This document shows, piece after piece, positions 10,188-61,808 of a stretch of 64,000 nt of DNA. Made by a program: the position numbers and the translations under genes. The DNA comes from Methanothrix sp. (GTDB lineage Archaea > Halobacteriota > Methanosarcinia > Methanotrichales > Methanotrichaceae). The stretch lies in the NCBI GenBank assembly GCA_963682135.1, contig OY821645.1, forward strand, positions 672,001 through 736,000, in the 5' to 3' direction. Under the pieces are notes generated by a model. That model ran no database searches and was not told where the DNA came from. It was given only the letters and a program-made list of their open reading frames with translations. Position 1 is the first letter of the stretch. Every line of letters begins with the position of its first letter.

Positions 10188-10305
10188 CGCTGAGGGTGAG
10201 ATTTGAACTCACGAGATGCGTCGCATCACTGGTTTGCTCGTCCCGCCCTCCGGATGGAGAGCAGTACCTCAAGACCAGCGCCGTAGGCCGCTTGGCTACC
10301 TCAGC
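10188..10305 (-). tRNA. tRNA-Ser(TGA) with 33-nt intron at position 37/38
   Basis: Acceptor stem GCTGAGG/CCTCAGC; D arm AGCCAAGCGG; anticodon stem CTGGT/ACCAG with TGA at 10271-10269; intron 10235-10267; long variable arm GATGC-GAC-GCATC; T loop GTTCAAATC; G discriminator. Confidence 0.9.
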
Positions 10306-14232: not shown

Positions 14233-14500
14233 TCATATTAATATTTTTGCCAGTTTTAATTTTATCTCTGGAAGCTCATTTTTAATGGCATCATTCACGA
14301 TCTCCCAGTCCAACCCAAAGTAATGGTGAACCAGCTTGTTTCTCATGCCGATCATCTGTCTCCATGGAATCTCTGGGTGCTCCTTTTTCAAATCATCCGA
14401 GATATTCCTGGATGCTTCTCCAATGATCTCCAAGGATTTACTTTGCAATGAAATCCATCTCTTCAAGGATGTGTCACAGTAGCTCTACATCTTTATTCAG
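14233..14500 (-). pseudogene. HepT/DUF86 HEPN toxin, disrupted
   Basis: LEIIGEA..PEIPWRQMIGMRNKLVHHY is intact, but the 5' part reads LNKDVELL*HILEEMDFIAK* in another frame. Confidence 0.8.
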
Positions 14501-14774
14501 ACCAGATCACATCCTTCTCCACGTAAGGACGGATCCGTTGATGAAGACCCTTGACGGTTACCAGGTCCACCTCTCTTCCCAGGAGATCTTCAAGATAAAA
14601 AGATAGGTTCATGAAGTTTTTAAATGTGGGCTTCTCGAACTCCACCAGTATGTCAATATCGCTGGACGCCTTCTCTTCGCCGCGAGCGAATGATCCGAAT
14701 ATACCGATCCGCCGGACGCTGAATCGAGTCTTGATATCGTTGGCGTGGCTTTTGATAATGTCGAGGATATCCAT
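14493..14774 (-). CDS. Minimal nucleotidyltransferase (MntA antitoxin)
   Basis: IFGSFARGE..SDIDILVEF..LLGREVDLV. The ATG at 14774 is preferred because the longer ORF runs through the repeat. Confidence 0.9.
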   Translation of the reverse strand: MDILDIIKSHANDIKTRFSVRRIGIFGSFARGEEKASSDIDILVEFEKPTFKNFMNLSFYLEDLLGREVDLVTVKGLHQRIRPYVEKDVIWSE

Positions 14775-14859
14775 ATTCAACCCATAGAATAGAGATGTTA
14801 CATCCCTAAAAACATTGCCCCTTTTGGTGCAAATGGTGTTTGTATCCGATCTGAGCAGT

Positions 14860-14958
14860 TCATTCGTGGCTCGTGCCTGCTGCTCGTGGCCTTGGGGCCG
14901 GGCCGTCCGGGGTTGCAGCGATGTCGTCACGGCGGGCAGGAGGCCGGTCGGGCCTGAT
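14860..14958. repeat. GC-rich inter-cassette repeat, copy 2 (internally shortened)
   Basis: GGGGCCGGGCCGTCCGG...GGCGGGC..GAGGCCGGTCGGGCCTGA. Confidence 0.65.
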
Positions 14959-15078
14959 GACCAGAAGAGCCACCCCGGAGTCAACTGCTTTTTGGGCGCT
15001 GAATTTTGGTAACGGCCGCATTTAATTATTACTATTATCAGAAGAAACTGCGGATCAAAACGCAAAAGGCGCAAAGGA

Positions 15079-15303
15079 TTATGCTACCTCTAACCATTCT
15101 TCGCGACTGATTCCAGATCGTTTTAAAATTTTCTGCAATAGATCCGCACTGATATCGCTGCCATGAGGATTAGGAATACGCGTCTCTACCAGTCCCCTGG
15201 ACATATACTCATGATCTGCTCCGGGATAAGGGCCGACAAATCCCAATTTGCTTAATCGCTTAATCAGTTCACGTCTTGAAACCGGCACAAGTTTATTCGA
15301 CAA
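15079..15303 (-). CDS. hicA: HicA-family toxin
   Basis: SRRELIKRLSKLGF..GADHEYM..IPNPH..ILKRSGISREEW; TTG start at 15303 overlaps the hicB stop. Confidence 0.85.
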   Translation of the reverse strand: MSNKLVPVSRRELIKRLSKLGFVGPYPGADHEYMSRGLVETRIPNPHGSDISADLLQKILKRSGISREEWLEVA

Positions 15304-15550
15304 TAGCAACCGGCTCCGCAGACGCATTAATAACATAGCCGCCTATTGCAGGTATCGGATGACCCAGTCTCAGCTTTAACGCAATCCAGCCCTCGATAAC
15401 GCTCTGCAGTTCCTTGCGACATTCTTCGAGAGATTTACCTGTAGCCCAAACGCCCTGCAGTTCGGGAACCTCGCCATAATAGGGCTTAGGGTCTTCGATG
15501 ATTTCGTAGGTGGCCCTTTCCATAGCCGCCAAGATGTATTCTCCAAACAT
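15293..15550 (-). CDS. hicB: HicB-family antitoxin
   Basis: MFGEYILAAM..YYGEVPELQGVWATGKSLEEC..IEGWI..PIP. Confidence 0.85.
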   Translation of the reverse strand: MFGEYILAAMERATYEIIEDPKPYYGEVPELQGVWATGKSLEECRKELQSVIEGWIALKLRLGHPIPAIGGYVINASAEPVAIVE

Positions 15551-15591
15551 TATCATGATTATCAGCAGTGATAAGATTATAGTCTTTCGCT

Positions 15592-15720
15592 TTGCCAGGC
15601 TCCCGCTCTGGCTTGTGGCCGCCGCCCGTGGGCCGGGCCGTCCGGGCTGTGGCGTGGTCGTTAGGACGGACTGGATTGCTTGGCAAGCGCTCGTGTCAGG
15701 GGGCAAGGACCGGTAGGCCC
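15592..15720. repeat. GC-rich inter-cassette repeat, copy 3
   Basis: GGGCCGGGCCGTCCGG and CTGGATTGCTTGGCAAGCGCTCGTGTCAGGGGGCA match copy 1. Confidence 0.7.
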
Positions 15721-16541: not shown

Positions 16542-17714
16542 TCAAGGATCTCTTTTTATTTGCTGCATTTTTCTGCAAATATCAGCTTCGTTTTCGGCCC
16601 AGATCACATGAATACCCAATGATAATGCATCTTCTTCAAAAAATCGTTCTTCTTCAGCCTTCAACATCTTCACTGTATCTTCGAAATCAAGGTTATTGGC
16701 AATTTTCTCATCTAACATATCTTTATTAATTTTTAAAAATTTTTTAAAACATTTCCTGCAATCAGCGAGTCTTGGTCGAAGCTGAATGATATTATGAAAT
16801 TCATCATCATTTCTTTCATTTTTTGCAGAATCAAGCAACCTACGCAAATTGGGATCGTTTAAGGAGAGTCCTATTAAGAGACACTTATTTTTAATAAATT
16901 TATCTAATTGAGTCTTATTAGTCCAGGCATTACTCGTATTGTACAAAGCATGATACGCTTCTTCGCTTAGGATTATTCTGTTTTTATTCGTTAGATTACC
17001 ATTTCGGGGCAAGAATCCATGAACATGGTAAATCGGAATAGTTCCGGGTTCTTCTGTTTCGGAATAATATATTGACCTATAGTTCTCTTGATTATCTTTT
17101 TCGAGATAATGCTCCAAAATATCATCATAATTATATGTGATTATGCAATCTAATTTCTTTTGACCACCATCATCTGAACTAAGCCGAATTATCTCGTCCA
17201 ATAATTTCGATTTTTTAGATTTGTTATTTCTATATAATGCACATCTAACAAATTTCTCAAATACTATGCAATCATCATCTTCAAGTCCGAGACTGCTATG
17301 GTGATGAAGATTTCTAGCTAATACCAGCTCATTTCTATTGAACATTTTTAAAAATAATTTTTTAATGAAATATATTCTATCTTCAAAGTCATTTTCACGA
17401 ATATATATATTATTCTGTAATATCTTTAGGAGATCCTTCCAATCAGGCAAGCCGCAGCTTTTAGATACGCCAGCACCTAATATTAGTACTAATTTCTTGC
17501 TATTATATGCTTTGTTAAGTTGTATAAACTGGATTGAATCCTCTGGAGACAAAGGACGATTTGTTCGCCTTTGATGAAAAATTTTAATAATTGTATTTAT
17601 ATCTTGTATTTCATCAAATGTATAATTTCCTAGCTCTCCGAAAGTTATATGACGAAGGTCTTGGAAGGTTACTGAATTGCATTTGTCATCAGGCAATCTT
17701 AGATCATGATTCAT
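16542..17714 (-). CDS. SIR2-like (SIR2_2) domain protein, probable defence NADase
   Basis: LILGAGVS..LPDW, IITYNYDD, YHVHG, LLIGLSLNDPNL; markedly AT-rich. Confidence 0.85.
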   Translation of the reverse strand: MNHDLRLPDDKCNSVTFQDLRHITFGELGNYTFDEIQDINTIIKIFHQRRTNRPLSPEDSIQFIQLNKAYNSKKLVLILGAGVSKSCGLPDWKDLLKILQNNIYIRENDFEDRIYFIKKLFLKMFNRNELVLARNLHHHSSLGLEDDDCIVFEKFVRCALYRNNKSKKSKLLDEIIRLSSDDGGQKKLDCIITYNYDDILEHYLEKDNQENYRSIYYSETEEPGTIPIYHVHGFLPRNGNLTNKNRIILSEEAYHALYNTSNAWTNKTQLDKFIKNKCLLIGLSLNDPNLRRLLDSAKNERNDDEFHNIIQLRPRLADCRKCFKKFLKINKDMLDEKIANNLDFEDTVKMLKAEEERFFEEDALSLGIHVIWAENEADICRKMQQIKRDP

Positions 17715-33269: not shown

Positions 33270-35771
33270 TTATTCTCCATTCCTGGACTTGGCCCGGAGG
33301 GCTTGCAGACGCTTGGCATCATTTTCTGAATCTGGATGTCCGATCTCCCTTTCATAGTCTACGCATATCTGCATCAGTTCAGCAGCCTGCTTGAGACCTC
33401 CTGATTTCTCATATGCGAGACCCAGATTCCAGCAAGTATTTGCTTCGCCCCTTCGGTCCCCGATCTCGTGGGCAATGACAAGACGCTGATCGTAGTACTC
33501 GATGGCCTTACGGGCGTCGCCCAGGTCGGCGTAGGCATTGCCCAGGTTGCCCAGATCAGCTCCCTCGCTCCTTCGGTCCCCGATCTCACGGGCTATAGTC
33601 AGGTGCTGCTCATAATACTCGATGGCCTTACGGGCGTCGCCCAGGTCGGCGTAGGCATTGCCCAGGTTGCCCAGCGCATTTCCTTCGCCCCTTCGGTCCC
33701 CGATATCACGGGCTATGGTCAGGTGCTGCTCGTGGTACTCGATGGCCTTGTGGGCGTCGCCCAGGTTCTTGTATGCGATGCCCAGGTTGCCCAGCGCATT
33801 TCCTTCGCCCCTTCGGTCCCCGATATCACGATCAATGGCCAGCGCCTGCTCGAGGTACTCGATGGCCTTACGGGCGTCGCCCAGGTCGGCATAGGCCAGG
33901 CCCAGGTTGCCCAGATCAGCTCCCTCGCCCCTTCGGTCCCCGATCTCGCGGGCTATGGTCAGATGCTGCTCGTAGTACTCGATGGCCTTACGGGCATCGC
34001 CCAGGTCGGCGTAGGCATTGCCCAGGTTGCCCAGCGCAGCTCCTTCGCCACTTCTGTCCCCGATCTCACGGGCTATGGTCAGGTGCTGCTCGTGGTACTC
34101 GATGGCCTTGTGGGCGTCGCCCAGGTTCTTGTATGCGATGCCCAGGTTGCCCAGCGCATTTCCTTCGCCCCTTCGGTCCCCGATCTCACGGGCTATGGTC
34201 AGATGCTGCTCGTGGTACTCGATGGCCTTGTGGGCGTCGCCCAGGGCGGCGTAGGCATTGCCCAGGTTGCCCAGCGCAGCTCCTTCGCCCTGCTTCGTCC
34301 CAATTTTGCGAAAAGCTTTCAGTGATTGCTTATGATAGTCGATGGCCTTGCGAACATTTCCAATGGCAGCGCTGGCAAGGCCCAACATAGTGAGAAAAGA
34401 TGCTTCGTCATAGCTTGCACCATCAGAATGTGCTGCCTCCAGTCCACACTCCAACATGGCAATTCTCTCCCCCGAATGCCCCTGTAGATCAAGATAATCT
34501 TTGATAGCCCACACAAGAGACCGAGCCTCTGCCAGCATCCCGATCCTAATGCAGACTGACTGAACTGCCAGGATGTGATCTCTCTGAGCATCTAAGTTTT
34601 CGTATCCTGGCAATCCCAGCTTCATCTGTTCTTGGCCGAATTTATCGTAATGCTGAGCCAGTCGAGCCAGTTCTTCCTTTGATACAGACAGCCTTTCCCT
34701 GGCATAAGTATGTGCCAGAGAATGGGTTATCTGATAGCTGGATTCAGGGCGCATTAACAATCCAAAATCGACCAGCTCGCCCAGGCTGAAGTTCGCCTTC
34801 AGAGCAGATAACTGCAGAGCTATGGCTATGACCTCAGGCTCGAAGGACTTCATGGCCAGAACTCCCGCCAGGCCGAGACAGGAGAGCGCCTGATCGCTTA
34901 CGTGCTCCAGACTGTGCTCCATCAGCAGTGGAATGCTCTGATGCTGCTTTTTTCCCATGTCCAGAGCCTCAAGCGGCGTCTCCTTCAGCCAGGCCAGATA
35001 GTCGCTGGCAATCTGTCGCCGGTGAGCCAGGTAGCGGCCTGCCAAGAATATGGCCAGGGGCAAACAGCCCAGGAGATTGCAGATGCTGCGAGATGTCTTT
35101 TCATCTGCAGCCATCGAGCCGCCCCAGGCCTGCAAAAGCTCGACAGCCTTATCCTCAGGCAGAGGCAGCAGATCGCTTGGCTCCTCAGGAGCATCGCTTC
35201 GGCGCCTGGTGGTGATGAGAACTCCGCAGCTTCCTGTGACTGTTAAAACTGCCTGCAGGTCATCGCAGGCCTCGGCTCCATCCAGGACTATCAGAGCCTG
35301 GCGGCCGGCCAGGGCTCTCTTTGCTGCTTCGTAAGGGCTTTGCCGCGGGTCTTCTCCATAAGCTCGGGCGATTTCTTCCAGAGCCGAAGCAGCCTGAGGC
35401 TTGTGATAGAAGGTATGAAAGACTATTCCATCTGGGAAGCGTTCCAGCGGGTTGCTTACGGGCGCAAGCTGCCAGATAGCTTCGGCAGCCAGAGCGGTCT
35501 TGCCCATACCTCCAGGGCCGCAGATGGTGACTGCGTGGCCAGCCTGAAGGTCCCGGTGGAGCGAAGCTAGCTCGGCCTCTCTTCCTGTGAAATGAGGGAC
35601 TCGCTGCGGCCTTTGGAAGGGCAGGCGAAGTTTTAGAGCTTCATTGTAGATGAAATCGCCCTGGATCTGGAACTGGCCGGAGAAGAGCGGGCCAGAGACG
35701 TCTCCTGCTACGTTGGTTTGTGGACCGTTGGTCGTCTGGCCACGTTGGTTGATTGCAGGCTTGTAGTTCAT
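33270..35771 (-). CDS. NLR-like STAND (NB-ARC-type) ATPase-TPR receptor with N-terminal signalling motif A
   Basis: FTGREAEL, Walker A GPGGMGKT, Walker B LIVLDG, LITTR, CLPLA; seven 40-aa TPR repeats; N-terminal QRGQTTNGPQTNVAGDVSGPLFSGQF. Confidence 0.9.
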   Translation of the reverse strand: MNYKPAINQRGQTTNGPQTNVAGDVSGPLFSGQFQIQGDFIYNEALKLRLPFQRPQRVPHFTGREAELASLHRDLQAGHAVTICGPGGMGKTALAAEAIWQLAPVSNPLERFPDGIVFHTFYHKPQAASALEEIARAYGEDPRQSPYEAAKRALAGRQALIVLDGAEACDDLQAVLTVTGSCGVLITTRRRSDAPEEPSDLLPLPEDKAVELLQAWGGSMAADEKTSRSICNLLGCLPLAIFLAGRYLAHRRQIASDYLAWLKETPLEALDMGKKQHQSIPLLMEHSLEHVSDQALSCLGLAGVLAMKSFEPEVIAIALQLSALKANFSLGELVDFGLLMRPESSYQITHSLAHTYARERLSVSKEELARLAQHYDKFGQEQMKLGLPGYENLDAQRDHILAVQSVCIRIGMLAEARSLVWAIKDYLDLQGHSGERIAMLECGLEAAHSDGASYDEASFLTMLGLASAAIGNVRKAIDYHKQSLKAFRKIGTKQGEGAALGNLGNAYAALGDAHKAIEYHEQHLTIAREIGDRRGEGNALGNLGIAYKNLGDAHKAIEYHEQHLTIAREIGDRSGEGAALGNLGNAYADLGDARKAIEYYEQHLTIAREIGDRRGEGADLGNLGLAYADLGDARKAIEYLEQALAIDRDIGDRRGEGNALGNLGIAYKNLGDAHKAIEYHEQHLTIARDIGDRRGEGNALGNLGNAYADLGDARKAIEYYEQHLTIAREIGDRRSEGADLGNLGNAYADLGDARKAIEYYDQRLVIAHEIGDRRGEANTCWNLGLAYEKSGGLKQAAELMQICVDYEREIGHPDSENDAKRLQALRAKSRNGE
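33450..34289 (-). repeat. Seven near-identical 120-bp tandem TPR-coding repeats
   Basis: The unit CCCAGGTTGCCCAG...CCCGAT(C/A)TC...TACTCGATGGCCTT recurs every 120 nt. Confidence 0.95.
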
Positions 35772-35777
35772 GATGGG

Positions 35778-38300
35778 CTATCTCCTCCATTCGGCCAGTT
35801 TTTGCTCAACCCTGGCTGCAAAGGGACTTTCGATTTGCCTGTAAATTTCGAGGGCAATTTCTGCTTTCTTGATAGCTTCGGGGTGCTTGCCGAGTCCGTA
35901 GAGGGCCAGACTGGAATTGTACAGCGCATTTCCTTCGCCCCTTCTGTCCCCGATCTCACGATCGATGGCTAGCGCCTGCTCGTAGTACTCGATGGCCTTA
36001 CGGGCGTCGCCCAGGGCGGCGTAGGCCAGGCCCAGGTTGCCCAGCGCAGCTCCTTCATTCCTTTTATCCCCGATTTCCTTGGCAATGGCCAGCGCCCGAT
36101 CGTAGTACTCGATGGCCTTACGGGCGTCGCCCAGGTCGGCGTAGGCATTGCCCAGGTTGCTCAGCGCATTTCCTTCGCCCCTTCTGTCCCCGATATCACG
36201 ATCAATGGCCAGCGCCTGCTCGTAGTACTCGATGGCCTGGCAGGCGTCGCCCAGGGCGGCGTAGGCCAGGCCCAGGTTGCCCAGCCAAGCACCTTCATTC
36301 CTTTTATCCCCGATTTCCTTGGCAATGGCCAGCGCCTGCTCGTAGTATTCGATGGCCTTACGGGCGTCGCCCAGGTCGGCGTGTGCCAGGCCCAGGTTGC
36401 CCAGCGCATTTCCTTCGCCCCTTCTGTCCCCGATCTCTCGGGCTATGGTCAGGTGCTGCTCGTAGTACTCGATAGCCTTACGGGCGTCGCCCAGGTCAGC
36501 GTGTGCCAGGCCCAGGTTGCCCAGCGCATTTCCTTCGCCCCTTCTGTCCCCGATCTCTCGGGCTATGACAAGACGCTGCTCGTAGTACTCGATGGCCTTA
36601 CGGGCGTCGCCCAGGGCGGCGTAGGCCAGGCCCAGGTTGCCCAGCGCATTTCCTTCGCCCCTTCTGTCCCCGATCTCACGATCAATGGCCAGCGCCTGCT
36701 CGTGGTACTCGATGGCCTTACGGGCGTCGCCCAGGGCGGCGTAGGCCAGGCCCAGGTTGCCCAGCGCATTTCCTTCGCCCCTTCTGTCCCCGATCTCACG
36801 ATCAATGGCCAGCGCCTGCTCGTAGTACTCGATGGCCTTACGGGCGTCGCCCAAAACGTAGTGGGCACTGCCCAGGTTACCCAGCGCAGCTCCTTCCACG
36901 CCCCTATTCCTCAGCTTTCTAGCAGCTTTCAAGGCTTCTTCAAGCCAGGAAATCCTCTGCGTCGGATGGAGGCGCAAATCTATCACATAAACTCCTGCAC
37001 CAGGGTAGTTCATGCAAAGATTCGCTGCCTGGGAATTTACTTCCAGGCTCTTACAGGACCAGGCATGACCGACGTTGATATTCGCTTCTTCTCTGTCAAA
37101 GAGCGCAAGACCCTTTTGGATTCCTTCGCTTCCCTGCAGGTAGTGGTCATCGGCTGCAGCTAGCAGATCTTTGTAGTAAGAGGAATGCCTTGCAGCAATG
37201 ATCTCCCTCGATTCGTCCCGCTGACGGGCTGAGGCAAAGAGGCGAGAGAGGTCGTGCAGCCTGTAGCGCCCATAATCCCGATCTTGAGACCTGTAATCTA
37301 CGAGACTCCACCGCACCAGCTCACTCAAATTCCTGTGCTTATCATCCAGGCAGATCTGCTCCTCAGCCTGGGCATCGAAGTCCGCCGGAAAGACTGACAG
37401 ATCGAGAAAAGTCTTCTGCACAGCAGCAGCAAGCCTTTGAAAGCTTAGGCCTAAGCTGGCGTCAACGCTCATCTCCACGCCCTGCTCGCCGATCATCTCA
37501 AGCCTGGTGCGCTCGTCCTTCAGCTCCTGAGCATATTGCTTCGGGCCGATGTCCTCGGAATTGGCCAGATAGCTTCCGGCAGCTCTCAAGGCCAGCGGCA
37601 GAAAGCCGCAGAGGCTGGCAATTTCAAGCCAGGCAGGGTCATCTCTGGGTGACTTATCTTGCTTTGCAGGGCAGCAGACATTGAGCAGCAGCTCCAGAGC
37701 TTCACCTGGCTTCATGACGTCCAGGTCCTTTTTGAAGAGGCCGGGTATTTTGATGGTCCTGCGGGAGGTGATGAGAAGAGCGCAGCTCTTGGGAGGAATC
37801 AGCTTGATGACCTGCTTGTCATCGGACGCATTATCCAGAAGGAGCAGGACGCGCTTGCCATTAAGCACTTCAAGATATCTGTCTTTGACTTCTGAATCGC
37901 TTTCTGGAATCTTTTCGTTGCGATGATAAGAATGGATGACATAGGCCATTGCCTCCATGGGAGAGAGGGGATTGGTCGTGCCCATCATGTCCACCATGAT
38001 CTGGCCGTCTGGGTAGCGATCTTTGAGTGATTCGGCGAGCTTGAGAGCAAGAGCCGTCTTGCCAACGCCCCCTATGCCACGCAGGCCGATGATGTTCTTG
38101 CCGGCTGAATACTCCGCTAAAAGCTCATTCAGCTCTTCATTGCGGCCTGTGAAATCTGAAGGCGGTTCCGGGATGAAAGGAAGCCGGGAGAGATCATTAG
38201 GTTTTGGGATATTAATATTATAATAATTTCTATCTCCGAATTGCTGCTCTACATTCCCAGTGGGATTTACAACCGGCCCTTTAGCATCCCTGAAATCCAA
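35778..38300 (-). CDS. NLR-like STAND (NB-ARC-type) ATPase-TPR receptor with N-terminal signalling motif B
   Basis: TTG start after GGAGGAG; FTGRNEEL, GIGGVGKT, LLLLDNA, LITSR, FLPLA, MHD-like RLHDL; eight 40-aa TPRs; N-terminal DFRDAKGPVVNPTGNVEQQFGD. Confidence 0.9.
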   Translation of the reverse strand: MDFRDAKGPVVNPTGNVEQQFGDRNYYNINIPKPNDLSRLPFIPEPPSDFTGRNEELNELLAEYSAGKNIIGLRGIGGVGKTALALKLAESLKDRYPDGQIMVDMMGTTNPLSPMEAMAYVIHSYHRNEKIPESDSEVKDRYLEVLNGKRVLLLLDNASDDKQVIKLIPPKSCALLITSRRTIKIPGLFKKDLDVMKPGEALELLLNVCCPAKQDKSPRDDPAWLEIASLCGFLPLALRAAGSYLANSEDIGPKQYAQELKDERTRLEMIGEQGVEMSVDASLGLSFQRLAAAVQKTFLDLSVFPADFDAQAEEQICLDDKHRNLSELVRWSLVDYRSQDRDYGRYRLHDLSRLFASARQRDESREIIAARHSSYYKDLLAAADDHYLQGSEGIQKGLALFDREEANINVGHAWSCKSLEVNSQAANLCMNYPGAGVYVIDLRLHPTQRISWLEEALKAARKLRNRGVEGAALGNLGSAHYVLGDARKAIEYYEQALAIDREIGDRRGEGNALGNLGLAYAALGDARKAIEYHEQALAIDREIGDRRGEGNALGNLGLAYAALGDARKAIEYYEQRLVIAREIGDRRGEGNALGNLGLAHADLGDARKAIEYYEQHLTIAREIGDRRGEGNALGNLGLAHADLGDARKAIEYYEQALAIAKEIGDKRNEGAWLGNLGLAYAALGDACQAIEYYEQALAIDRDIGDRRGEGNALSNLGNAYADLGDARKAIEYYDRALAIAKEIGDKRNEGAALGNLGLAYAALGDARKAIEYYEQALAIDREIGDRRGEGNALYNSSLALYGLGKHPEAIKKAEIALEIYRQIESPFAARVEQKLAEWRR
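35940..36899 (-). repeat. Eight near-identical 120-bp tandem TPR-coding repeats
   Basis: Same 120-nt unit as 33450-34289. Confidence 0.95.
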
Positions 38301-38343: not shown

Positions 38344-39477
38344 CTACTCATCCTCTGGAGCTATGAGCTCGATCTTTTCGGGATCTACTCCCTCCTTGAC
38401 CAGCAATTCTGGTTTGCTTTCTTCCGGTATCCCCTCAAGGAGCAGAACGACGATCCCTTGATCAAAAGCCTGCTTAATCGATAGCCCAAATCCTATGGCC
38501 CGGTAGAAAGAGCCAGCAAAGGCAATTGCAGCCTCATCTCCGATTGCATCGTTCATGCCAATGGCGCAATCGATCACCTGGGTAATGGCTTCAGCCTGAA
38601 TTTTAGAGTAGCACGCATTTAGGATTACTACTCGAATGTTAGCTTTCAGCGTCTGGAATAGCGCCTTTATCGCTCTGGGATTTACTGGCTTTTGCTCTCC
38701 CCGGCTATCCACTAAAATTATCTCGCCAGATTGGCTGCCGTGCCCACTGAAATGCACAATCTGCGGCTTATGCTGGTTGAGCAGTTGCAGCAAATCATCG
38801 GGACGAACTGCCCAGGCGGATATGAGGTCTATTGAATCACGGTACTCTGCAGCTCTGATCTTTTCTGTGATCTCTCGGATCTCTCTATCAAGCTCCAAAG
38901 GTGTGGTGCCTTTGGGATTTGAAGCCAGGAAGAGAGCCTTAATCTTTTTAGAATTTTTATTATCATCGGACGATTCTTTTGCCCTGGAATGATCGATATT
39001 CACATCTCCGAAATGCTGGCTGACTGAGCCGCTTGGCCTAATAACCGCGCCTTTCGAGCCTCGAAAGTCATTTGCGTCTCCATTGAATTGACCGGAAAAT
39101 ACAGCTCCCTGTACGCCTCCGGCAATATTGGTCTGCGGACCGTGAACTGTCTGGCCCCGCTGGTCGAATACCGATCCTGCGCCCTCTTTCTTGATTGTCT
39201 CGACAAGCCTCTGAATCTCCTCTGCAAAATCAGCATCATCTTCCATCTTTTCGGCTATGGCCGCCTGTAGGGCAGCCTGCCTTGCCTTTGAATCCGGCTT
39301 CTCCTGGGCGCCAGCCAAAGCCTGCTGGGCGCTGGCGTCGCCTTTGAACCTGTCTGCAACCGACCCGGAAAGATCACCTACCAGACCCCCCAGCTTCTCT
39401 CCAACGGTTTTTGAAAATACTTCTGCTCCCTTAGCCACAAAGGGAGCCGCAAGGGCCGCTATTCCGAGTAGATCCAT
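38344..39477 (-). CDS. Effector: helical Bell/HeLo-like domain + two signalling motifs + CHAT (caspase-like) protease
   Basis: N-terminal hydrophobic/amphipathic helices (AALAAPFVAKGAE..DDADFAEEIQRLV); G/Q/N-rich linker aa 104-158; CHAT motifs LFLASNP, VHFSGHG, VILNAC with catalytic His and Cys. Confidence 0.85.
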   Translation of the reverse strand: MDLLGIAALAAPFVAKGAEVFSKTVGEKLGGLVGDLSGSVADRFKGDASAQQALAGAQEKPDSKARQAALQAAIAEKMEDDADFAEEIQRLVETIKKEGAGSVFDQRGQTVHGPQTNIAGGVQGAVFSGQFNGDANDFRGSKGAVIRPSGSVSQHFGDVNIDHSRAKESSDDNKNSKKIKALFLASNPKGTTPLELDREIREITEKIRAAEYRDSIDLISAWAVRPDDLLQLLNQHKPQIVHFSGHGSQSGEIILVDSRGEQKPVNPRAIKALFQTLKANIRVVILNACYSKIQAEAITQVIDCAIGMNDAIGDEAAIAFAGSFYRAIGFGLSIKQAFDQGIVVLLLEGIPEESKPELLVKEGVDPEKIELIAPEDE

Positions 39478-56891: not shown

Positions 56892-59800
56892 TCATTCCTT
56901 GTTTTTTGCAGGGGATTTTTCAGCTAGTTTATCAGTGAGACTCTTAATCAACTCATCAAGATCTTTCTCATACTCTTCATTGAGATCCAATTCCTTCGCC
57001 AACCGGCAACATTTCGAGGCCTTTCTGGCAATGAGCGGATCCCTCTTTGATTGCAGATCCCATAAATCAATTTTGCCCTTATATGCCATAGCCAGGTGAA
57101 AATATGCAGAAGGTCCGGCTTGCTCGGACACGGATTTCTCAAGCCAGTATATCGCTTCATCTATGAGGCCAAGGTCATAGCAAATCCAGCCCATGCAATC
57201 TTCGTAATCGGCATTTAAGCGATGCATCCTTGATTGATAATCCTCTTTATATTCTCTGCTATTTGTCCCTTTATTGCAGTCTTCCAGTGAGCCAATATCT
57301 TTTTTGGCAAGACGAGCATTATCAAGGGCAATACCAGGGTTACCATTGCGTTCTATGCATGAGATTGATTTACCTAAATAGGCTCGAATTATTATCTCAT
57401 TTGGATAAATGAAATCTTCATATTTTTCTCCAAGAATATTATCTGGCGCATCTTCTTTAAATTTTACTCCTTCTGATATTATCTGGTCGAACAGTCTATC
57501 CGATTCATCGAATGACTTAGCTTTGAGGTAAGCATAAGCAAGTCTTAGGGCGATTATGAGCGTGTCTCTATCGGAATGGATCTTTGCAGATCTAACATTG
57601 TAGAGAATTCTGAAATGAGGTATTGCTTTCTTGTAGTTGCCCATCTCATAATGCACTTTGCCAAGCCAGTAACGAGCCACACCTCTCTTTGTTATCAGAG
57701 ATTTATCATAGATCCTCAGGGCTTGATTGAGTTTATCACTGGCGGCAGTCAGTATTTTCTTACGATGTTCTTTATCATCGCATTTTTTTGCCTGTTTAAC
57801 ATATGATTGTGCCATCTCAACCAGGATTTCAGGCTTGTCAGGCTTCCAAGATTGTGCATAATCCAGCTCTTGCATGCCAAAATCAAACTCCTCCAGGTCG
57901 CAGAATATGCTGCCAAGCTCACGACGCTCGTCATAGCCCAACGGGTTAGACATCCTTCCTTTTTGTGCTCCTTTTAGGGCATTCGACATTTCTTTTCTTT
58001 GCTCACTCTGTGATCGGGAAAGCTTCGTCCAGAGGCTTCTGCTTTTTATATCCTGAGGACGTTCATCCTCTAATAGATTAATTGCTTCCTGGAAGGCCGT
58101 TTCCGCTTCTCTTGGCTTTTTCATATTAAGATAAAGCTGACCTGATTCAATCAAGAGCTGAGAATATTCCTGGACATACATGGAGTACTTTCTTGGAAAT
58201 TCAGTTTTAATTATTGAACTATTATTTTTATTATCCTTAATAAAAATCTCATTGATCTCTTCAAGCGTATTTATAGATTCTTTATCAAATAAATCCACCT
58301 GCGCTTTGATTTTATCATTATTCTTTTTATTTTCAATAGCATCAACAGCTCTGAGATAGACATCTGCGCAATTTTTTAGGGCATTTTCTAATTCATCGAT
58401 CGCTTCTTTATTGTGGGATAGTTTTTGCGCTTCGCTAATAATATCGCTAATTTTTCTTTGTAATTTATTGTACATTTTTTTATTTTTATAATCTCTAGCT
58501 TCAATTGGATTTGACTCACCATTTATAAGTTTGTATGTATCTAATTTGCATTTTAACACATTCTTGGCATTGGCGAGACAATTCTCAGACTCTTGCTTTT
58601 TTTCTTGATTTTTTTGATATATTTCATTAAATAGAGCATCCAATACGTTTATTTCCGGGCCAATGAAGATAGAGTCGTCTTTGAGATGCTTATTTAAACT
58701 TTCTATTTTTTTATCGAAATCACTATTATCTTGAATCTTATTATTTTCTAGAAAATTAATTGAATTAGTGAGACATCTATGGGCATCGTCTGGTCTTTTC
58801 GATTTCAAATAGTGCTCATGTCTATCAAACATCTCTCTAGCCTTTCTGAAAGAATCGTCCCAATAATTATAATATAAATAAGATAAATAACTATACGAAT
58901 AAAGAACCTGTGCTCTTTCCCATCCCTTTTCTGCCCGATGATAATCATTCTTCAATTTATCAATAATTATTTTGATGTGGTTTTCGTAAATGTTCTTAGT
59001 CTCATTGCTATCGTTATCTATTGAATCTAGGTCATCTAATAATTTAATTAATGTCGCAAAAACGGCGGCGCTTTTCCAATTCCCCGATACACCTTCCTCT
59101 TTTCCGCCGCATTCAAGCATCATTTTAAGACATTTGATAATCGAATCTCCTTTCTTTGCATCATCCTTTAATCTTGCCAAAAAGGAAGCATTTTCCAGAC
59201 GTCGACATTGCTCGGCTTCCTCCATCGACCCATAGACTTTTGCCACCATTTCCAGGGCGGCACTGCATGCATCAGGGCCATAGACCATGATACTATCGCA
59301 TAATTGAAACGCTCTTTCTTTGCACATTAATTCATTATGGGTTACTTCTTTGTTCCACTTTTTATAAAAAATACATCCAAGACATGCCTTGAACCTGTCA
59401 TCTTCAGGAGCCATTTTTGAGCCAAATTCGTAAATTTTTCTGGCGGCTTCATCGTATTTATTGGATGAATTCTGACAATGGGCTTTGCCTAGATGAAGAT
59501 ATAAATTGGAATCATAGGGATTCACGCTGATGGCCTGTTCAAGAGATTTTCTCGCACTAAAATTTTGCATAGAATAAGATAGCTCCTCTGGAAAGGATTT
59601 TTGCTTAAGCAAATATAGATCGGCCAGATCAATTAGGCACTCGCTAAACAGCTTCCTGGCATCAGTCAAATCATCCTCCCAGAATTCTGATTTTAGCAAT
59701 GCCAACAGGGAATAATATGCCGCCTTTTTACAGCACGTGATCGGATTTATTAGATCTATCTTTTGGACGCCGGATCCTGAATTCTTCACGCTGGTCTCAA

Positions 59801-61808
59801 CTGAACAGATAGACTCTCGGTTTTTTTCATCAATCCTGGCCAGATGGCTCATGGCATCTCCCTTCAGATTATATGCTTTTGCCAGACATCGATAATCCTT
59901 CAATATGATGCCAGAGTCTTTCTCTTTAAGTTTAATTATATAATCACTCAAATCAACAACTTTCGTATACTGTTCTGTAATTGTCTTATTGCAGAGGCGG
60001 AGAAGCTTAATATCATGATGATACGAATGAGAAAGTTCCTCTTGGTCTCTTGCTCTATCATAAATATTGAGCCCAAGGGCATAATATGCCTCCCATTCGT
60101 TGGGATTTTTCTTGATGGCCCTGGAGAACGCGACCTCGGCAGAGTCGAGCTGCTGGAGTTCGGTATAGACGACCCCTAAATTATAATAGGCTTTAATGGA
60201 GTCATCCTCCTCTTCGGCAGCATTGATGAAGTGCTTTTCAGCATCCTTTAAGTAATATTGCCTTTTTTTGACAGAATGCAGACAATCACGATAAGCTCGA
60301 AGACCTTCATTGAAATTCCAAATAGCTTTCCAGGGTACTACTTTGCCAGGTTCTCCAAATGCCAGCTTTGCGAAAATCCGGTGAGAGAGCTCACTAACCA
60401 TATCGTCAATCGGTCGGGTCTTTGAGTCACTATCCAAGGAGATCTGCTCATCAACAACCCAGCTGTATGGCTCACTTCCCGTCATAGTTGCGGTCAGGTA
60501 AAAAATGTCTCCCTTTTCCTTCGTTGTGTCTTTCGTCTTATGCAATCCGATAGTTATCCTTGGTCCCTGCATCAAGCGCCCGATCATACTGGTGACTGAC
60601 CCCAGGGGGACGCTTATTGGGCCAAGCCCAATCTCCGAATTTTCACTGGTTGAGCTCTTTAGAATATCTCCGATCTCCCCTGATTTAAGGGTGGCTTCGA
60701 CGGGCCTGCCTGCACCTGATTCAGATCGAATGGCACGTTGCTCATCTACATCTTTGTATAGCTCGCTTATCCTATTGAGGTTTGTTGCCAGCAGGTCGGC
60801 CAACCCACTTGGATTGGGTTCATCTCTGTCGGCCCCCTTTCCAGCTTTATCATCTGCTTTGGTTTCTTGCGGAGGGGAATTTGTGAAATCTTCCACAACA
60901 ATTGACAATTGATGAGATGTCCTCATGACGAGGATTATTACTTCTAAAAGAAACCAAATTACTAAGATCTTCTCCCAATGAAAACTGATAGTTGTTATTA
61001 TGCTTGATACCATTGCATAAAAAAAGTTATCCCCAAAATAATTCCAATATACTATTACTCCCTTTGGCGAATCCATATTGAGCAATAATCCGTCAGATGG
61101 TCCGTCCAGCAATGATCCTTGCGCATACCTTGCACCAAGATATGTGACGTTAGATATGATTCCATTGATCTGGGATGTGCCATCGATAATCATTCTTGAG
61201 CTCGATGCAATCAGGCCATTGTAGGCTTTCTCTATCAACCAGACAATGATTGCGACATCTGCCAGCCTTATTACAGGAGCCGGACATCCTGTAATCAAGA
61301 AGCGGTAGGTTTTTCCCAGCCATCTGGATATCCACAATAATAGAAATCGAGCAGGGAAAAAAATAGTATGTTTCGAAAGAATTAATAATGTTGAGAGGAG
61401 TAATAGTATTAATGAAATCAAGATAATAGAAAAGCCCAACATTGCCCATAGAGAAGATTGTGGTAAGCCTTTAGCTTCTCCAAAGAGTAGGTATAATATG
61501 CTTTCTCCATAGGCCTGGTCAATTATGCGAAGAATAAGAAGCGAAATTAGAATGACGCCAATGCCAAGAAATAATATTATCGCGTAAGCCCACCTTTTCT
61601 TACACAATGGTTTAAAATGGAAAATAAGAGCAGGAACAAAAAAGAAGAAAAAAAACGTAGTAATCGCATATGCCCAAAGATCAGACATCTCTGAGAAAGC
61701 TGTCGCTTTCACTAGAATGCTGATGAATGCACTGGCAATAAACAACGAACTCGCAAAAATAAAGAAAACCGTTGAAGCCCCATTCCTTACCTTCAGCATA
61801 ATTGGCAA
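56892..61808 (-). CDS. Large membrane-anchored TPR protein
   Basis: Multiple N-terminal TM helices followed by TPRs (AYYNLGVVY, LYLHLGKA, YWLGKVHY, YFHLAMAY); AT-rich. Confidence 0.8.
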   Translation of the reverse strand: MPIMLKVRNGASTVFFIFASSLFIASAFISILVKATAFSEMSDLWAYAITTFFFFFFVPALIFHFKPLCKKRWAYAIILFLGIGVILISLLILRIIDQAYGESILYLLFGEAKGLPQSSLWAMLGFSIILISLILLLLSTLLILSKHTIFFPARFLLLWISRWLGKTYRFLITGCPAPVIRLADVAIIVWLIEKAYNGLIASSSRMIIDGTSQINGIISNVTYLGARYAQGSLLDGPSDGLLLNMDSPKGVIVYWNYFGDNFFYAMVSSIITTISFHWEKILVIWFLLEVIILVMRTSHQLSIVVEDFTNSPPQETKADDKAGKGADRDEPNPSGLADLLATNLNRISELYKDVDEQRAIRSESGAGRPVEATLKSGEIGDILKSSTSENSEIGLGPISVPLGSVTSMIGRLMQGPRITIGLHKTKDTTKEKGDIFYLTATMTGSEPYSWVVDEQISLDSDSKTRPIDDMVSELSHRIFAKLAFGEPGKVVPWKAIWNFNEGLRAYRDCLHSVKKRQYYLKDAEKHFINAAEEEDDSIKAYYNLGVVYTELQQLDSAEVAFSRAIKKNPNEWEAYYALGLNIYDRARDQEELSHSYHHDIKLLRLCNKTITEQYTKVVDLSDYIIKLKEKDSGIILKDYRCLAKAYNLKGDAMSHLARIDEKNRESICSVETSVKNSGSGVQKIDLINPITCCKKAAYYSLLALLKSEFWEDDLTDARKLFSECLIDLADLYLLKQKSFPEELSYSMQNFSARKSLEQAISVNPYDSNLYLHLGKAHCQNSSNKYDEAARKIYEFGSKMAPEDDRFKACLGCIFYKKWNKEVTHNELMCKERAFQLCDSIMVYGPDACSAALEMVAKVYGSMEEAEQCRRLENASFLARLKDDAKKGDSIIKCLKMMLECGGKEEGVSGNWKSAAVFATLIKLLDDLDSIDNDSNETKNIYENHIKIIIDKLKNDYHRAEKGWERAQVLYSYSYLSYLYYNYWDDSFRKAREMFDRHEHYLKSKRPDDAHRCLTNSINFLENNKIQDNSDFDKKIESLNKHLKDDSIFIGPEINVLDALFNEIYQKNQEKKQESENCLANAKNVLKCKLDTYKLINGESNPIEARDYKNKKMYNKLQRKISDIISEAQKLSHNKEAIDELENALKNCADVYLRAVDAIENKKNNDKIKAQVDLFDKESINTLEEINEIFIKDNKNNSSIIKTEFPRKYSMYVQEYSQLLIESGQLYLNMKKPREAETAFQEAINLLEDERPQDIKSRSLWTKLSRSQSEQRKEMSNALKGAQKGRMSNPLGYDERRELGSIFCDLEEFDFGMQELDYAQSWKPDKPEILVEMAQSYVKQAKKCDDKEHRKKILTAASDKLNQALRIYDKSLITKRGVARYWLGKVHYEMGNYKKAIPHFRILYNVRSAKIHSDRDTLIIALRLAYAYLKAKSFDESDRLFDQIISEGVKFKEDAPDNILGEKYEDFIYPNEIIIRAYLGKSISCIERNGNPGIALDNARLAKKDIGSLEDCNKGTNSREYKEDYQSRMHRLNADYEDCMGWICYDLGLIDEAIYWLEKSVSEQAGPSAYFHLAMAYKGKIDLWDLQSKRDPLIARKASKCCRLAKELDLNEEYEKDLDELIKSLTDKLAEKSPAKNKE

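Follow-up and report, generated by a model that had tools for sequence, protein, structure and literature searches.

Signal transfer from NOD-like receptors (NLRs) to effector proteins through short amyloid motifs is established in fungi and was recently shown in phage defense of E. coli; for Archaea, the evidence consists of gene pairs and a single peptide test. The closest described systems are pairs of a Bell-domain effector and an NLR matched by a bacterial amyloid signaling sequence (BASS), that is, BASS1 to BASS10 and unclassified pairs of the Dyrka preprint (bioRxiv 10.1101/2020.01.06.895854) and a Methanothrix soehngenii pair (PMC8086366). Here, we analyze a three-gene locus within a 64,000-nucleotide stretch of DNA, hereafter the window, from Methanothrix sp. 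(GenBank assembly GCA_963682135.1, contig OY821645.1, positions 672,001 to 736,000). The locus resembles the published pairs in the Bell family of its effector, in the family of one of its motifs (M1), and in the tight collinear layout with NB-ARC/TPR NLRs. As described, however, the published effectors end with the motif, whereas this effector adds a second motif (M2) and a CHAT (caspase-like) protease module, and two NLRs with different N-terminal motifs lie downstream of it (three NLRs in the related genome G041). We consider it fairly likely that polymerization templated by the NLRs activates both heads of this one effector.

Several other described systems resemble parts of the locus. BASS motifs have been reported on effectors of the CHAT, TIR2, alpha/beta-hydrolase, and guanylate cyclase types (Dyrka preprint, section 9), and BASS11 occurs with TIR, CHAT, and EAD7 (10.1101/2024.11.07.622273). 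The BASS-CHAT effectors, like the present one, use a short matched motif to link CHAT with an NLR; in the published descriptions, however, the motif is C-terminal and the enzyme is the sole effector domain, whereas here the motif region is N-terminal to CHAT and is common to CHAT and the Bell domain. Likewise, in the fungal clusters HELLP/SBP/PNT1 (PP motif) and SesA/SesB/HET-eN (sigma motif), one NLR-type trigger serves a HeLo-type effector and an enzyme, but those effectors are described as separate proteins with one common motif and the enzyme as a lipase, in contrast to one polypeptide, two motifs, several NLRs, and a protease (PMC5485727). The abortive infection system Bab/Agp of E. coli is alike in its small helical Bell-type domain, the structure of which was deposited as 9H9V, and in the motif matched to the sensor N terminus (10.1101/2024.11.07.622273). 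In the literature consulted, it is the only Bell-type system whose biological function, phage defense, has been shown; its account gives a TPR-GreA/B-PIN sensor, a single motif, and a single head, whereas the sensors here are NLRs. The SAVED-CHAT protein of the Haliangium ochraceum type III-B CRISPR system (8TL0; 10.1101/2023.06.23.546230) is alike in CHAT sequence and dyad spacing but is polymerized by cA3 acting on the SAVED domain and cuts a second caspase, and no second caspase is encoded here. Finally, bacterial gasdermins, EACC1, and Pepco (PMC12642450) also couple a protease and a membrane-damaging module under an NLR-like sensor, but as separate proteins of which an inhibitory piece is cut at a defined site, whereas no conserved site is found here and a canonical Bell protein does without a protease. 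Neither a Bell-motif-CHAT fusion nor two motifs in one effector are described in the consulted parts of the Dyrka preprint, PMC8086366, PMC7889193, PMC12261475, PMC9815663, and 10.1101/2024.11.07.622273, although the gene could be among those tabulated in the supplement of the Dyrka preprint. Not found in the literature searched, and apparently new relative to these accounts as far as they were available, are a motif lying between two effector domains, two unrelated motifs each with its own NLR, and recurrent Bell-motif-enzyme fusions.

The features of the locus, in the coordinates of the window, are as follows (aa, amino acids; ORF, open reading frame).

38344..39477, minus strand: effector gene, a single ORF with an ATG start encoding 377 aa (Bell domain, M1, M2, spacer, and predicted CHAT protease)
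39172..39477, minus strand: Bell-family helical domain, aa 1-102, with five predicted helices, a hydrophobic helix 1, and Asp at position 2
39079..39171, minus strand: motif M1, aa 103-133, core FDQRGQTVHGPQTNIAGGVQGAVFSGQF, matching the NLR2 N terminus
38989..39078, minus strand: motif M2, aa 134-163, core DFRGSKGAVIRPSGSVSQHFGDVN, matching the NLR1 N terminus
38947..38988, minus strand: charged, Ser-rich spacer, aa 164-177, the least conserved segment
38347..38946, minus strand: predicted minimal CHAT (caspase-like) protease module, aa 178-377, matched by Pfam, PADLOC, and 8tl0_A
38740..38742, minus strand: codon of the predicted catalytic His246 (in HFSGHG), invariant and aligned to the SAVED-CHAT dyad His
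38611..38613, minus strand: codon of the predicted catalytic Cys289 (in LNAC), invariant and aligned to the SAVED-CHAT dyad Cys
35778..38300, minus strand: NLR1, 840 aa, with an M2-type N-terminal motif, NB-ARC, and TPR; TTG start preceded by GGAGG
38220..38297, minus strand: NLR1 N-terminal motif, aa 2-27 (DFRDAKGPVVNPTGNVEQQFGDRNYY), matching M2
33270..35771, minus strand: NLR2, 833 aa, with an M1-type N-terminal motif, NB-ARC, and TPR
35670..35753, minus strand: NLR2 N-terminal motif, aa 7-34 (INQRGQTTNGPQTNVAGDVSGPLFSGQF), matching M1

The three genes are on one strand, with the NLR1 start 43 nucleotides past the effector stop and the NLR2 start 6 nucleotides past the NLR1 stop. Both downstream proteins match the Pfam families NB-ARC (E = 3.6e-15 in NLR1 and 2.7e-8 in NLR2) and TPR_12 (E = 2.2e-98 and 4.1e-56, respectively). 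The hallmark of a BASS-type pair, a motif common to an effector and the N terminus of an adjacent collinear NLR, is found twice: M2 (aa 137-160) is identical to residues 2-25 of NLR1 at 14 of 24 positions (BLASTP E = 6e-9), and M1 (aa 105-131) is identical to residues 8-34 of NLR2 at 19 of 27 (E = 3e-12). Contigs of four sequencing runs cover the locus only in fragments that are broken in the TPR repeats, and the short-sided joints look repeat-driven. No RNA run is among the sequencing runs listed as carrying the locus.

The effector begins with MDLLGIAALAAPFVAKGAEVF, and SRAKESSDDNKNSKK occupies aa 163-177, HFSGHG aa 242-247, and LNAC aa 286-289, so that all the strings quoted in an earlier note on this DNA are present in the ORF. 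That note had described a tripartite effector with signaling motifs between a Bell/HeLo-like domain and an intact caspase-like protease, and this layout, with a Bell domain, central motifs, and a CHAT domain that appears intact in one 377-aa ORF, holds. Taken one by one, the Bell domain, the BASS-type motifs, CHAT, and the NB-ARC/TPR NLRs are all of described types. The homolog search returned 2461 proteins with E ≤ 0.001 among 8000 candidates scored; among the 120 best matches listed, at least 21 clusters at 90% identity, that of the window included, span at least 96% of the effector and are 59 to 100% identical to it, and therefore the architecture is not a product of chance. One near-full-length homolog comes, according to its source label, from a Methanosarcinales archaeon. 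Conservation by segment, expressed as mean pairwise identity across 14 aligned full-length homologs including that of the window, is 0.86 for CHAT, 0.75 for M1, 0.64 for Bell, 0.62 for M2, and 0.34 for the spacer. An AlphaFold2 model of the whole effector, with 14 close homologs as input, was poor (mean pLDDT 47.4, with the CHAT part below 50).

The assignment of the N-terminal domain to the Bell family rests on sequence similarity. Residues 1-136 of the effector are 57% identical (78/137; E = 5e-51) to a Bell+M1 protein of the Methanothrix relative G035, and residues 5-29 of the NLR adjoining that gene are letter for letter the peptide AEB69175.1_5_29 listed in Table 2 of PMC8086366, a 25-residue NLR-side peptide reported there to aggregate, with cross-beta signatures in Fourier-transform infrared spectroscopy and Congo red binding. 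The Bell alignment of the Dyrka preprint includes a Methanothrix soehngenii protein with an accession adjacent to AEB69175.1; judging by the adjacency of the accession numbers, and not by an accession match, the G035 protein is presumably the one aligned there. The domain shows the traits published for Bell domains: it is alpha-helical and approximately 100 aa long, its first helix is hydrophobic, and residue 2 or 3 is acidic (here Asp2). By contrast, canonical Bell proteins are 120 to 140 aa long with a terminal motif, whereas this protein has 377 aa; because its motif region is internal and CHAT follows, the domain is Bell but the architecture is noncanonical. The AlphaFold2 model of the N-terminal 102 residues, with 82 family members as input, is confident (mean pLDDT 92.5; pTM 0.83) and places helices at 3-24, 27-44, 48-59, 64-80, and 82-100, of which the first has a mean Kyte-Doolittle hydropathy of 1.40 versus at most 0.13 for each of the other four. 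This predicted five-helix fold agrees with the description of Bab and of modeled Bell domains as four helices cupping helix 1 (10.1101/2024.11.07.622273), and it bears out the helical domain of approximately 100 aa with a hydrophobic first helix that the earlier note had noticed.

The Bell family is large, and its typical members are short. A full HMMER scan of aa 1-165 against 1.84 billion representatives found 316 representative clusters at E ≤ 1e-3, mostly Bell+motif proteins of 120 to 160 aa. Among the 150 that were listed, 108 have a near-complete Bell copy, and 90 of these 108 are short, consisting of the domain and a tail of at most 70 aa without a protease, whereas 17 carry a C-terminal extension longer than 70 aa and 1 an N-terminal extension. 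The short proteins have an M-D or M-x-D start, a hydrophobic helix 1, an FKGDxYAEQTL...P...D..FA core, and varied Q/N/G-rich tails. In the whole 3.04-Mb genome, two ORFs match the Bell profile, namely, the effector and one canonical short gene, which encodes a 137-aa protein and is followed by an NLR with a matching N terminus (L002). No Pfam, NCBIfam, or PADLOC match links aa 1-177 to the gasdermin, EACC1, or Pepco families.

The central region, aa 103-163, consists of G, Q, N, S, and V to 54% (27% elsewhere in the protein) and of L, K, and E to 2% (26% elsewhere), which is the bias described for bacterial amyloid signaling sequences, rich in G, Q, N, and V and poor in K and L (Dyrka preprint). 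The region comprises two different motifs, each with its own downstream NLR, so that the motif linker of the earlier note is present as a Q/N/G-rich stretch but is not a single motif. M1 is identical to the AEB69175.1 peptide (PMC8086366) at 13 of 19 positions. The M2-type motif, sought genome-wide in the 3.04 Mb with two regular expressions, occurs only in the effector and NLR1; by eye, the NLR1 N terminus and a Frankia BASS3 peptide tabulated in PMC8086366 share D-x-R-D-A-K-G and G-N-V. Both motifs are predicted to form amyloid. M1 and M2 were also considered as pseudo-repeats of each other and rejected as such, given that their Smith-Waterman scores equal those of shuffles (the fraction of shuffles reaching the score was 0.44, 0.06, and 0.47 in three homologs). 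At 39079..39090 (effector aa 131-134), six residues of the M1-M2 connector (GPxxxG) that are present in all 13 other aligned homologs are missing. The first motif follows the end of Bell helix 5 (aa 100) with no linker in between. On the other side, a hydrophilic K/R/D/S-rich linker separates M2 from CHAT in 14/14 homologs, with none of its columns invariant across the 14.

The C-terminal module matches Pfam CHAT (PF12770) over aa 168-340 (E = 2.5e-9; 37.4 bits against a cutoff of 24) and the PADLOC profiles chat (E = 3e-17) and SAVED_CHAT (E = 3e-9), whereas its match to the NCBIfam family "caspase, EACC1-associated type" is weak (E = 1.7e-4; 21 bits, far under the cutoff of 140). Among solved structures, the nearest to it in sequence is the SAVED-CHAT filament 8TL0 (8tl0_A; phmmer E = 4.5e-14), in which the dyad is H375/C422 and the protease is reported to be switched on by filament formation (10.1101/2023.06.23.546230). 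The His and Cys of 8tl0_A that align to His246 and Cys289 have chain indices 355 and 402, that is, the published spacing of 47 at a constant offset of 20. His242, His246, and Cys289 are invariant in 14/14 aligned full-length homologs, and His246 and Cys289 in all 36 sequences of a further alignment; 111 of 183 CHAT columns are invariant, and the dyad is kept in homologs down to 64% overall identity. The module is a predicted protease that crowding would activate; the clustering of the protease by polymerization, which the earlier note had put forward, has its precedent in the SAVED-CHAT filament, and by that analogy may apply here.

The CHAT module, of approximately 200 aa, recurs at 56 to 76% identity in many proteins with other partners; it seems to be a mobile and strongly conserved effector unit that Archaea and Bacteria have in common. 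Its partners in these proteins (P0028 to P0120; L024 to L054) include FGE-sulfatase, TIR, PspA, NACHT, NB-ARC, TPR, PfkB, and wHTH, and the source labels assign some of the carriers to Acidobacteria (Pyrinomonadaceae and Blastocatellia). Twenty-eight CHAT-only metagenome loci were examined, 27 of which gave an ORF by the criteria used. CHAT starts within 30 residues of the N terminus in 21 of the 27, and in 8 it is followed by a C-terminal Q/N/G-rich tail, the published order of CHAT and motif; an M2-like motif before CHAT, read by eye, was seen in none of the 27, that is, no stand-alone M2-CHAT ancestor was among them. Within the same genome, three of five CHAT matches share an open frame with an NB-ARC match, which suggests that NLRs regularly control CHAT effectors in this organism. 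These open frames (G000:C1, approximately 2428032-2429357 on the plus strand and 555756-557036 and 2999677-3001131 on the minus strand) look like all-in-one CHAT-NLR proteins.

Relatives of the locus were examined to see how far the arrangement is kept. Among the 105 species genomes of the order, which comprises one family, the intact tripartite gene was found in two: that of the window and G041, in which it is 76% identical; the Bell+M1 part alone is matched at 29 places in 26 of the 105. Metagenome contigs add four intact tripartite loci and a decayed one. The tripartite form is present in several Methanotrichaceae. An M2-type NLR lies directly downstream of the effector in all five loci with downstream DNA (the window, L019, L020, L021, and L023), and an M1-type NLR comes next in three of the four with further DNA, L019 being the exception. 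The strong conservation of CHAT, the invariance of its dyad, and the retention of this NLR partner in 5/5 loci together indicate purifying selection on an active enzyme. The effector locus of G041 (L017) has three NLRs. One of them (G041:C61, 4213..6405, minus strand) has an N terminus in which M1 is followed by the connector and then by the beginning of M2, a near copy of the effector center; the third NLR, which comes after it, carries M1 alone. A pattern-limited scan of named genome records with a 15-row Bell alignment gave 15 loci, all titled Methanothrix, Methanosaeta, or Methanotrichaceae; 1 of the 15 is tripartite, and most of the others are canonical pairs of a Bell+M1 gene and an M1-type NLR. 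The order of the parts, Bell-M1, M2-CHAT, M2-NLR, and M1-NLR, hints at a possible origin by insertion of an M2-CHAT/M2-NLR unit within a Bell-M1/M1-NLR pair. No free M2-CHAT gene was found among the 27 CHAT-only metagenome loci.

A second head on a Bell protein is not peculiar to this effector. P0121 has the order Bell-M1-M2-PNP_UDP, and P0161 that of Bell-motif-DUF4062-motif, with the motif occurring twice and flanking DUF4062; because PNP_UDP and DUF4062 occupy the CHAT position in these relatives, the two-headed design does not need a protease. A TIR domain precedes Bell and the motif in P0248, a large CHAT region follows Bell in P0140, and P0124 and P0138 are Bell-motif-NB-ARC proteins. 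Further Bell proteins with a second domain are P0122, P0125, P0127, P0131, and P0133, and several of the added domains have no Pfam match. Conversely, the M1-connector-M2 block, often with a third, ITGDGNV-type element, ends Peptidase_C14, Trypsin+C14, GNAT, and other proteins; its carriers (P0168, P0178, P0181, P0203, P0143, and P0160) are bacterial-looking.

The mechanism that we favor, by which several sensors probably fire one double-headed suicide protein, would run as follows. A triggered NB-ARC/TPR sensor, either NLR1 or NLR2, would oligomerize, and the oligomer would gather the N-terminal motifs (M2 type in NLR1 and M1 type in NLR2) into a cross-beta seed. In the central region of the effector, the seed would template the motif of its own type, so that effector molecules polymerize. 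Polymerization would then switch the Bell domain beside M1 to a membrane-attacking state, as proposed for canonical Bell/HET-S-type effectors, and would crowd the CHAT domains beside M2, such that this caspase-like protease starts to act on substrates in the cell; self-cleavage would not be required. The two different motifs would let different sensors address one effector, which amounts to an OR gate. Published precedents exist for the separate steps: the SAVED-CHAT filament 8TL0 is a solved case of CHAT activation by polymerization (10.1101/2023.06.23.546230), amyloid signaling in Bab/Agp is reported to activate a Bell-type effector during phage infection (10.1101/2024.11.07.622273), and in fungi one NLR is described as activating a pore former and an enzyme via a common amyloid motif, with "a single effector activated by different NLRs" proposed as well (PMC5485727). 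As part of the same reading, the locus is more probably than otherwise a three-gene cell death or immune operon with amyloid-type signal transfer.

Several observations count against this mechanism. What the sequences show are the identities of the domains, the two motif matches, the layout of the operon, and an architecture that is conserved and recurs; amyloid formation, membrane activity, and proteolysis by the effector are steps that we infer, as are the protease substrates and the biological trigger of the operon. On structure, the N-terminal domain could be neither tied to HeLo, MLKL, or coiled-coil bundles nor told apart from generic ones: a Foldseek search of the model against the PDB gave no match at E ≤ 1e-3 (best E = 0.15), and the top row of a wide VIA-align search covering 48,161 chains was the coiled-coil domain of the ZAR1 resistosome (6j5t_G; Z = 5.2; root mean square deviation, 2.9; 67 residues), tied with unrelated helical chains. 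A second VIA look reached at most Z = 4.7, with the NRC4 resistosome (9cc8_A; Z = 3.6) at rank 20, and a profile of 82 Bell-family sequences searched against PDB sequences gave a best E of 0.015, to an unrelated protein. Hence, the structural searches yielded only generic helical-bundle matches, and no sequence or structural match to any PDB chain was detected for the domain by the 82-sequence profile, Foldseek, or VIA-align; Bab (9H9V), MLKL, and the HET-S HeLo domain were not among the rows listed in the structural searches, and their absence there excludes none of them. In Pfam, the N-terminal domain of the effector itself has no match, 8 of the 82 Bell-family members have weak HetE-N matches (best E = 0.0057), and no HeLo-type family is among the 25 most matched of the 115 families that match the 82 members. 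Of the Bell/HeLo-like label in the earlier note, which had proposed a structural comparison of this domain, the Bell half stands on sequence, whereas for the HeLo half the model searches listed generic bundles that decide neither way.

The other observations against it concern the operon and its relatives. The operon has no further gene that is a candidate protease target. Cognate effector/NLR pairs of M2 are no more alike than noncognate ones, with 8 to 15 of 25 positions identical in all 25 combinations; a single M2 position hints at co-variation between effector and NLR (F/F in two pairs, I/I in two, and F/I in one). The closest relative, L019, which is 92% identical and has the same flanking housekeeping genes, has no adjacent M1-type NLR. 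In G035, as also in L042, the tripartite copy is decayed: it carries two stops, its CHAT is truncated, and an NLR downstream is lacking; the gene is therefore dispensable. This copy (L018; G035:C1, 7762..8772, plus strand; the same in L042) retains Bell-M1-M2 and the first 40 CHAT residues before a stop, and the following 100-aa ORF opens with the CHAT HFSGHG stretch and continues as unrelated sequence; a transposase-like ORF and a small two-gene pair resembling a toxin-antitoxin system lie upstream. Finally, M1 and M2 also form one conserved C-terminal block in bacterial caspase-type and GNAT proteins.

Since they are conserved together in those proteins, M1 and M2 may be one composite motif. 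On this alternative, M1, the connector, and M2 would form a single multirung amyloid unit (compare the two rungs of HET-s and the long sigma motif), and an NLR carrying either half would nucleate the same fold, with the two-headed scheme otherwise unchanged. The block is kept, often with the ITGDGNV-type element, as the C-terminal unit of Peptidase_C14, GNAT, and other proteins; the G041 NLR with M1, the connector, and the start of M2 points the same way, and HET-s-type effectors are described as carrying two repeats where the NLR has a single one (Dyrka preprint). However, M1 and M2 are not detectable pseudo-repeats, unlike r1 and r2 of HET-s, in many Bell proteins M1 is the only motif and the partner NLR is of the M1 type, and NLR1 and NLR2 each match one half only. 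We regard a composite core as plausible, though less likely than not.

Less likely still, and in our view improbable, is that the protein is a protease-licensed pore former, in which the polymerized CHAT would cut its own polypeptide in trans and only the Bell fragment, freed from an inhibitory CHAT, would kill, a single-chain analog of a caspase with gasdermin or EACC1. Such licensing has published parallels, with prokaryotic caspase-like proteases under NLR-like sensors reported to activate EACC1, Pepco, and gasdermin by site-specific cleavage (PMC12642450) and fungal CHAT- and S8-NLR genes reported to adjoin gasdermin genes (PMC9815663); in the effector itself, the His/Cys dyad is intact, the hydrophilic K/R/D/S linker between M2 and CHAT is kept in 14/14 homologs, and the weak match to the EACC1-associated caspase family (E = 1.7e-4; 21 bits against 140) is in keeping with it. 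The earlier note had proposed that the protease cuts the spacer to release a membrane-active N-terminal domain. The position of the spacer speaks against this: it lies between M2 and CHAT, and consequently cleavage of it would detach the protease, with Bell-M1-M2, in canonical form, remaining on the polymer, while no linker separates Bell helix 5 from M1. Furthermore, the spacer has no conserved residue (0/14 invariant columns; identity 0.34 versus 0.86 for CHAT), 90 of the 108 near-complete Bell representatives (among the 150 of 316 listed) are canonical Bell+motif proteins without a protease partner, and relatives carry the nonprotease domains PNP_UDP and DUF4062 at the CHAT position. The self-cleavage idea is therefore weakly supported. 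That the gene has no effector role of its own, being either a recent chimera heading to decay or a protein in which CHAT acts as a regulator that trims NLRs or the fiber to end the signal, is very improbable, for although the copy of one relative is decayed and has a transposase and a toxin-antitoxin pair as neighbors, the intact gene is in only 2/105 species genomes of the order, and CHAT is without a known substrate, CHAT is the best conserved segment (0.86; 111/183 invariant columns), its dyad is invariant down to 64% identity, and the M2-type NLR partner is kept in 5/5 loci.

Elsewhere in the window, other features were seen apart from the operon. A 390-aa ORF (16542..17714, minus strand) matching SIR2_2 (SIR2-like; E = 1.6e-19) is located in a low-GC stretch (0.38 at 16 to 18 kb versus approximately 0.5 around it) and may be an acquired defense-type gene. 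Just before it are a nucleotidyltransferase ORF (NTP_transf_2; 14493..15074, minus strand) and a UPF0150-like ORF (15293..15706, minus strand), which resemble toxin-antitoxin components. A second low-GC stretch (0.36 to 0.41 at 58 to 62 kb) holds a 1638-aa ORF with TPR matches only (56892..61808, minus strand). An Rfam tRNA match (10188..10305, minus strand) spans 118 nucleotides for a model of 71 positions and, for that reason, probably contains an intron.

Returning to the favored mechanism, NLR-templated activation of both heads, the natural occurrence of a motif between two effector domains lets one ask whether fiber formation alone activates a caspase-like protease. The two unrelated motifs and two sensors provide a clean system in which amyloid motifs can be studied as orthogonal addresses in signal integration, an idea that has been proposed for fungi (PMC5485727) and of which no demonstration was found in the literature searched. 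With the recurrent enzymatic second head on Bell proteins, two branches of NLR effectors, pore formers and enzymes, come together in a single molecule. More tentatively, and with less than even confidence, we suggest that the effector is a hub with two orthogonal addresses, at which distinct NLRs would each nucleate a single fiber that both drives the pore former into the membrane and activates the protease by proximity, and that Bell-motif-enzyme fusions (with CHAT, PNP_UDP, DUF4062, or TIR) are a general class. If so, these fusions would be a so far undescribed class of two-headed, amyloid-controlled effectors, and the Methanothrix protein would be an archaeal functional counterpart of the inflammasome speck, made from approximately 60 residues of amyloid motif.

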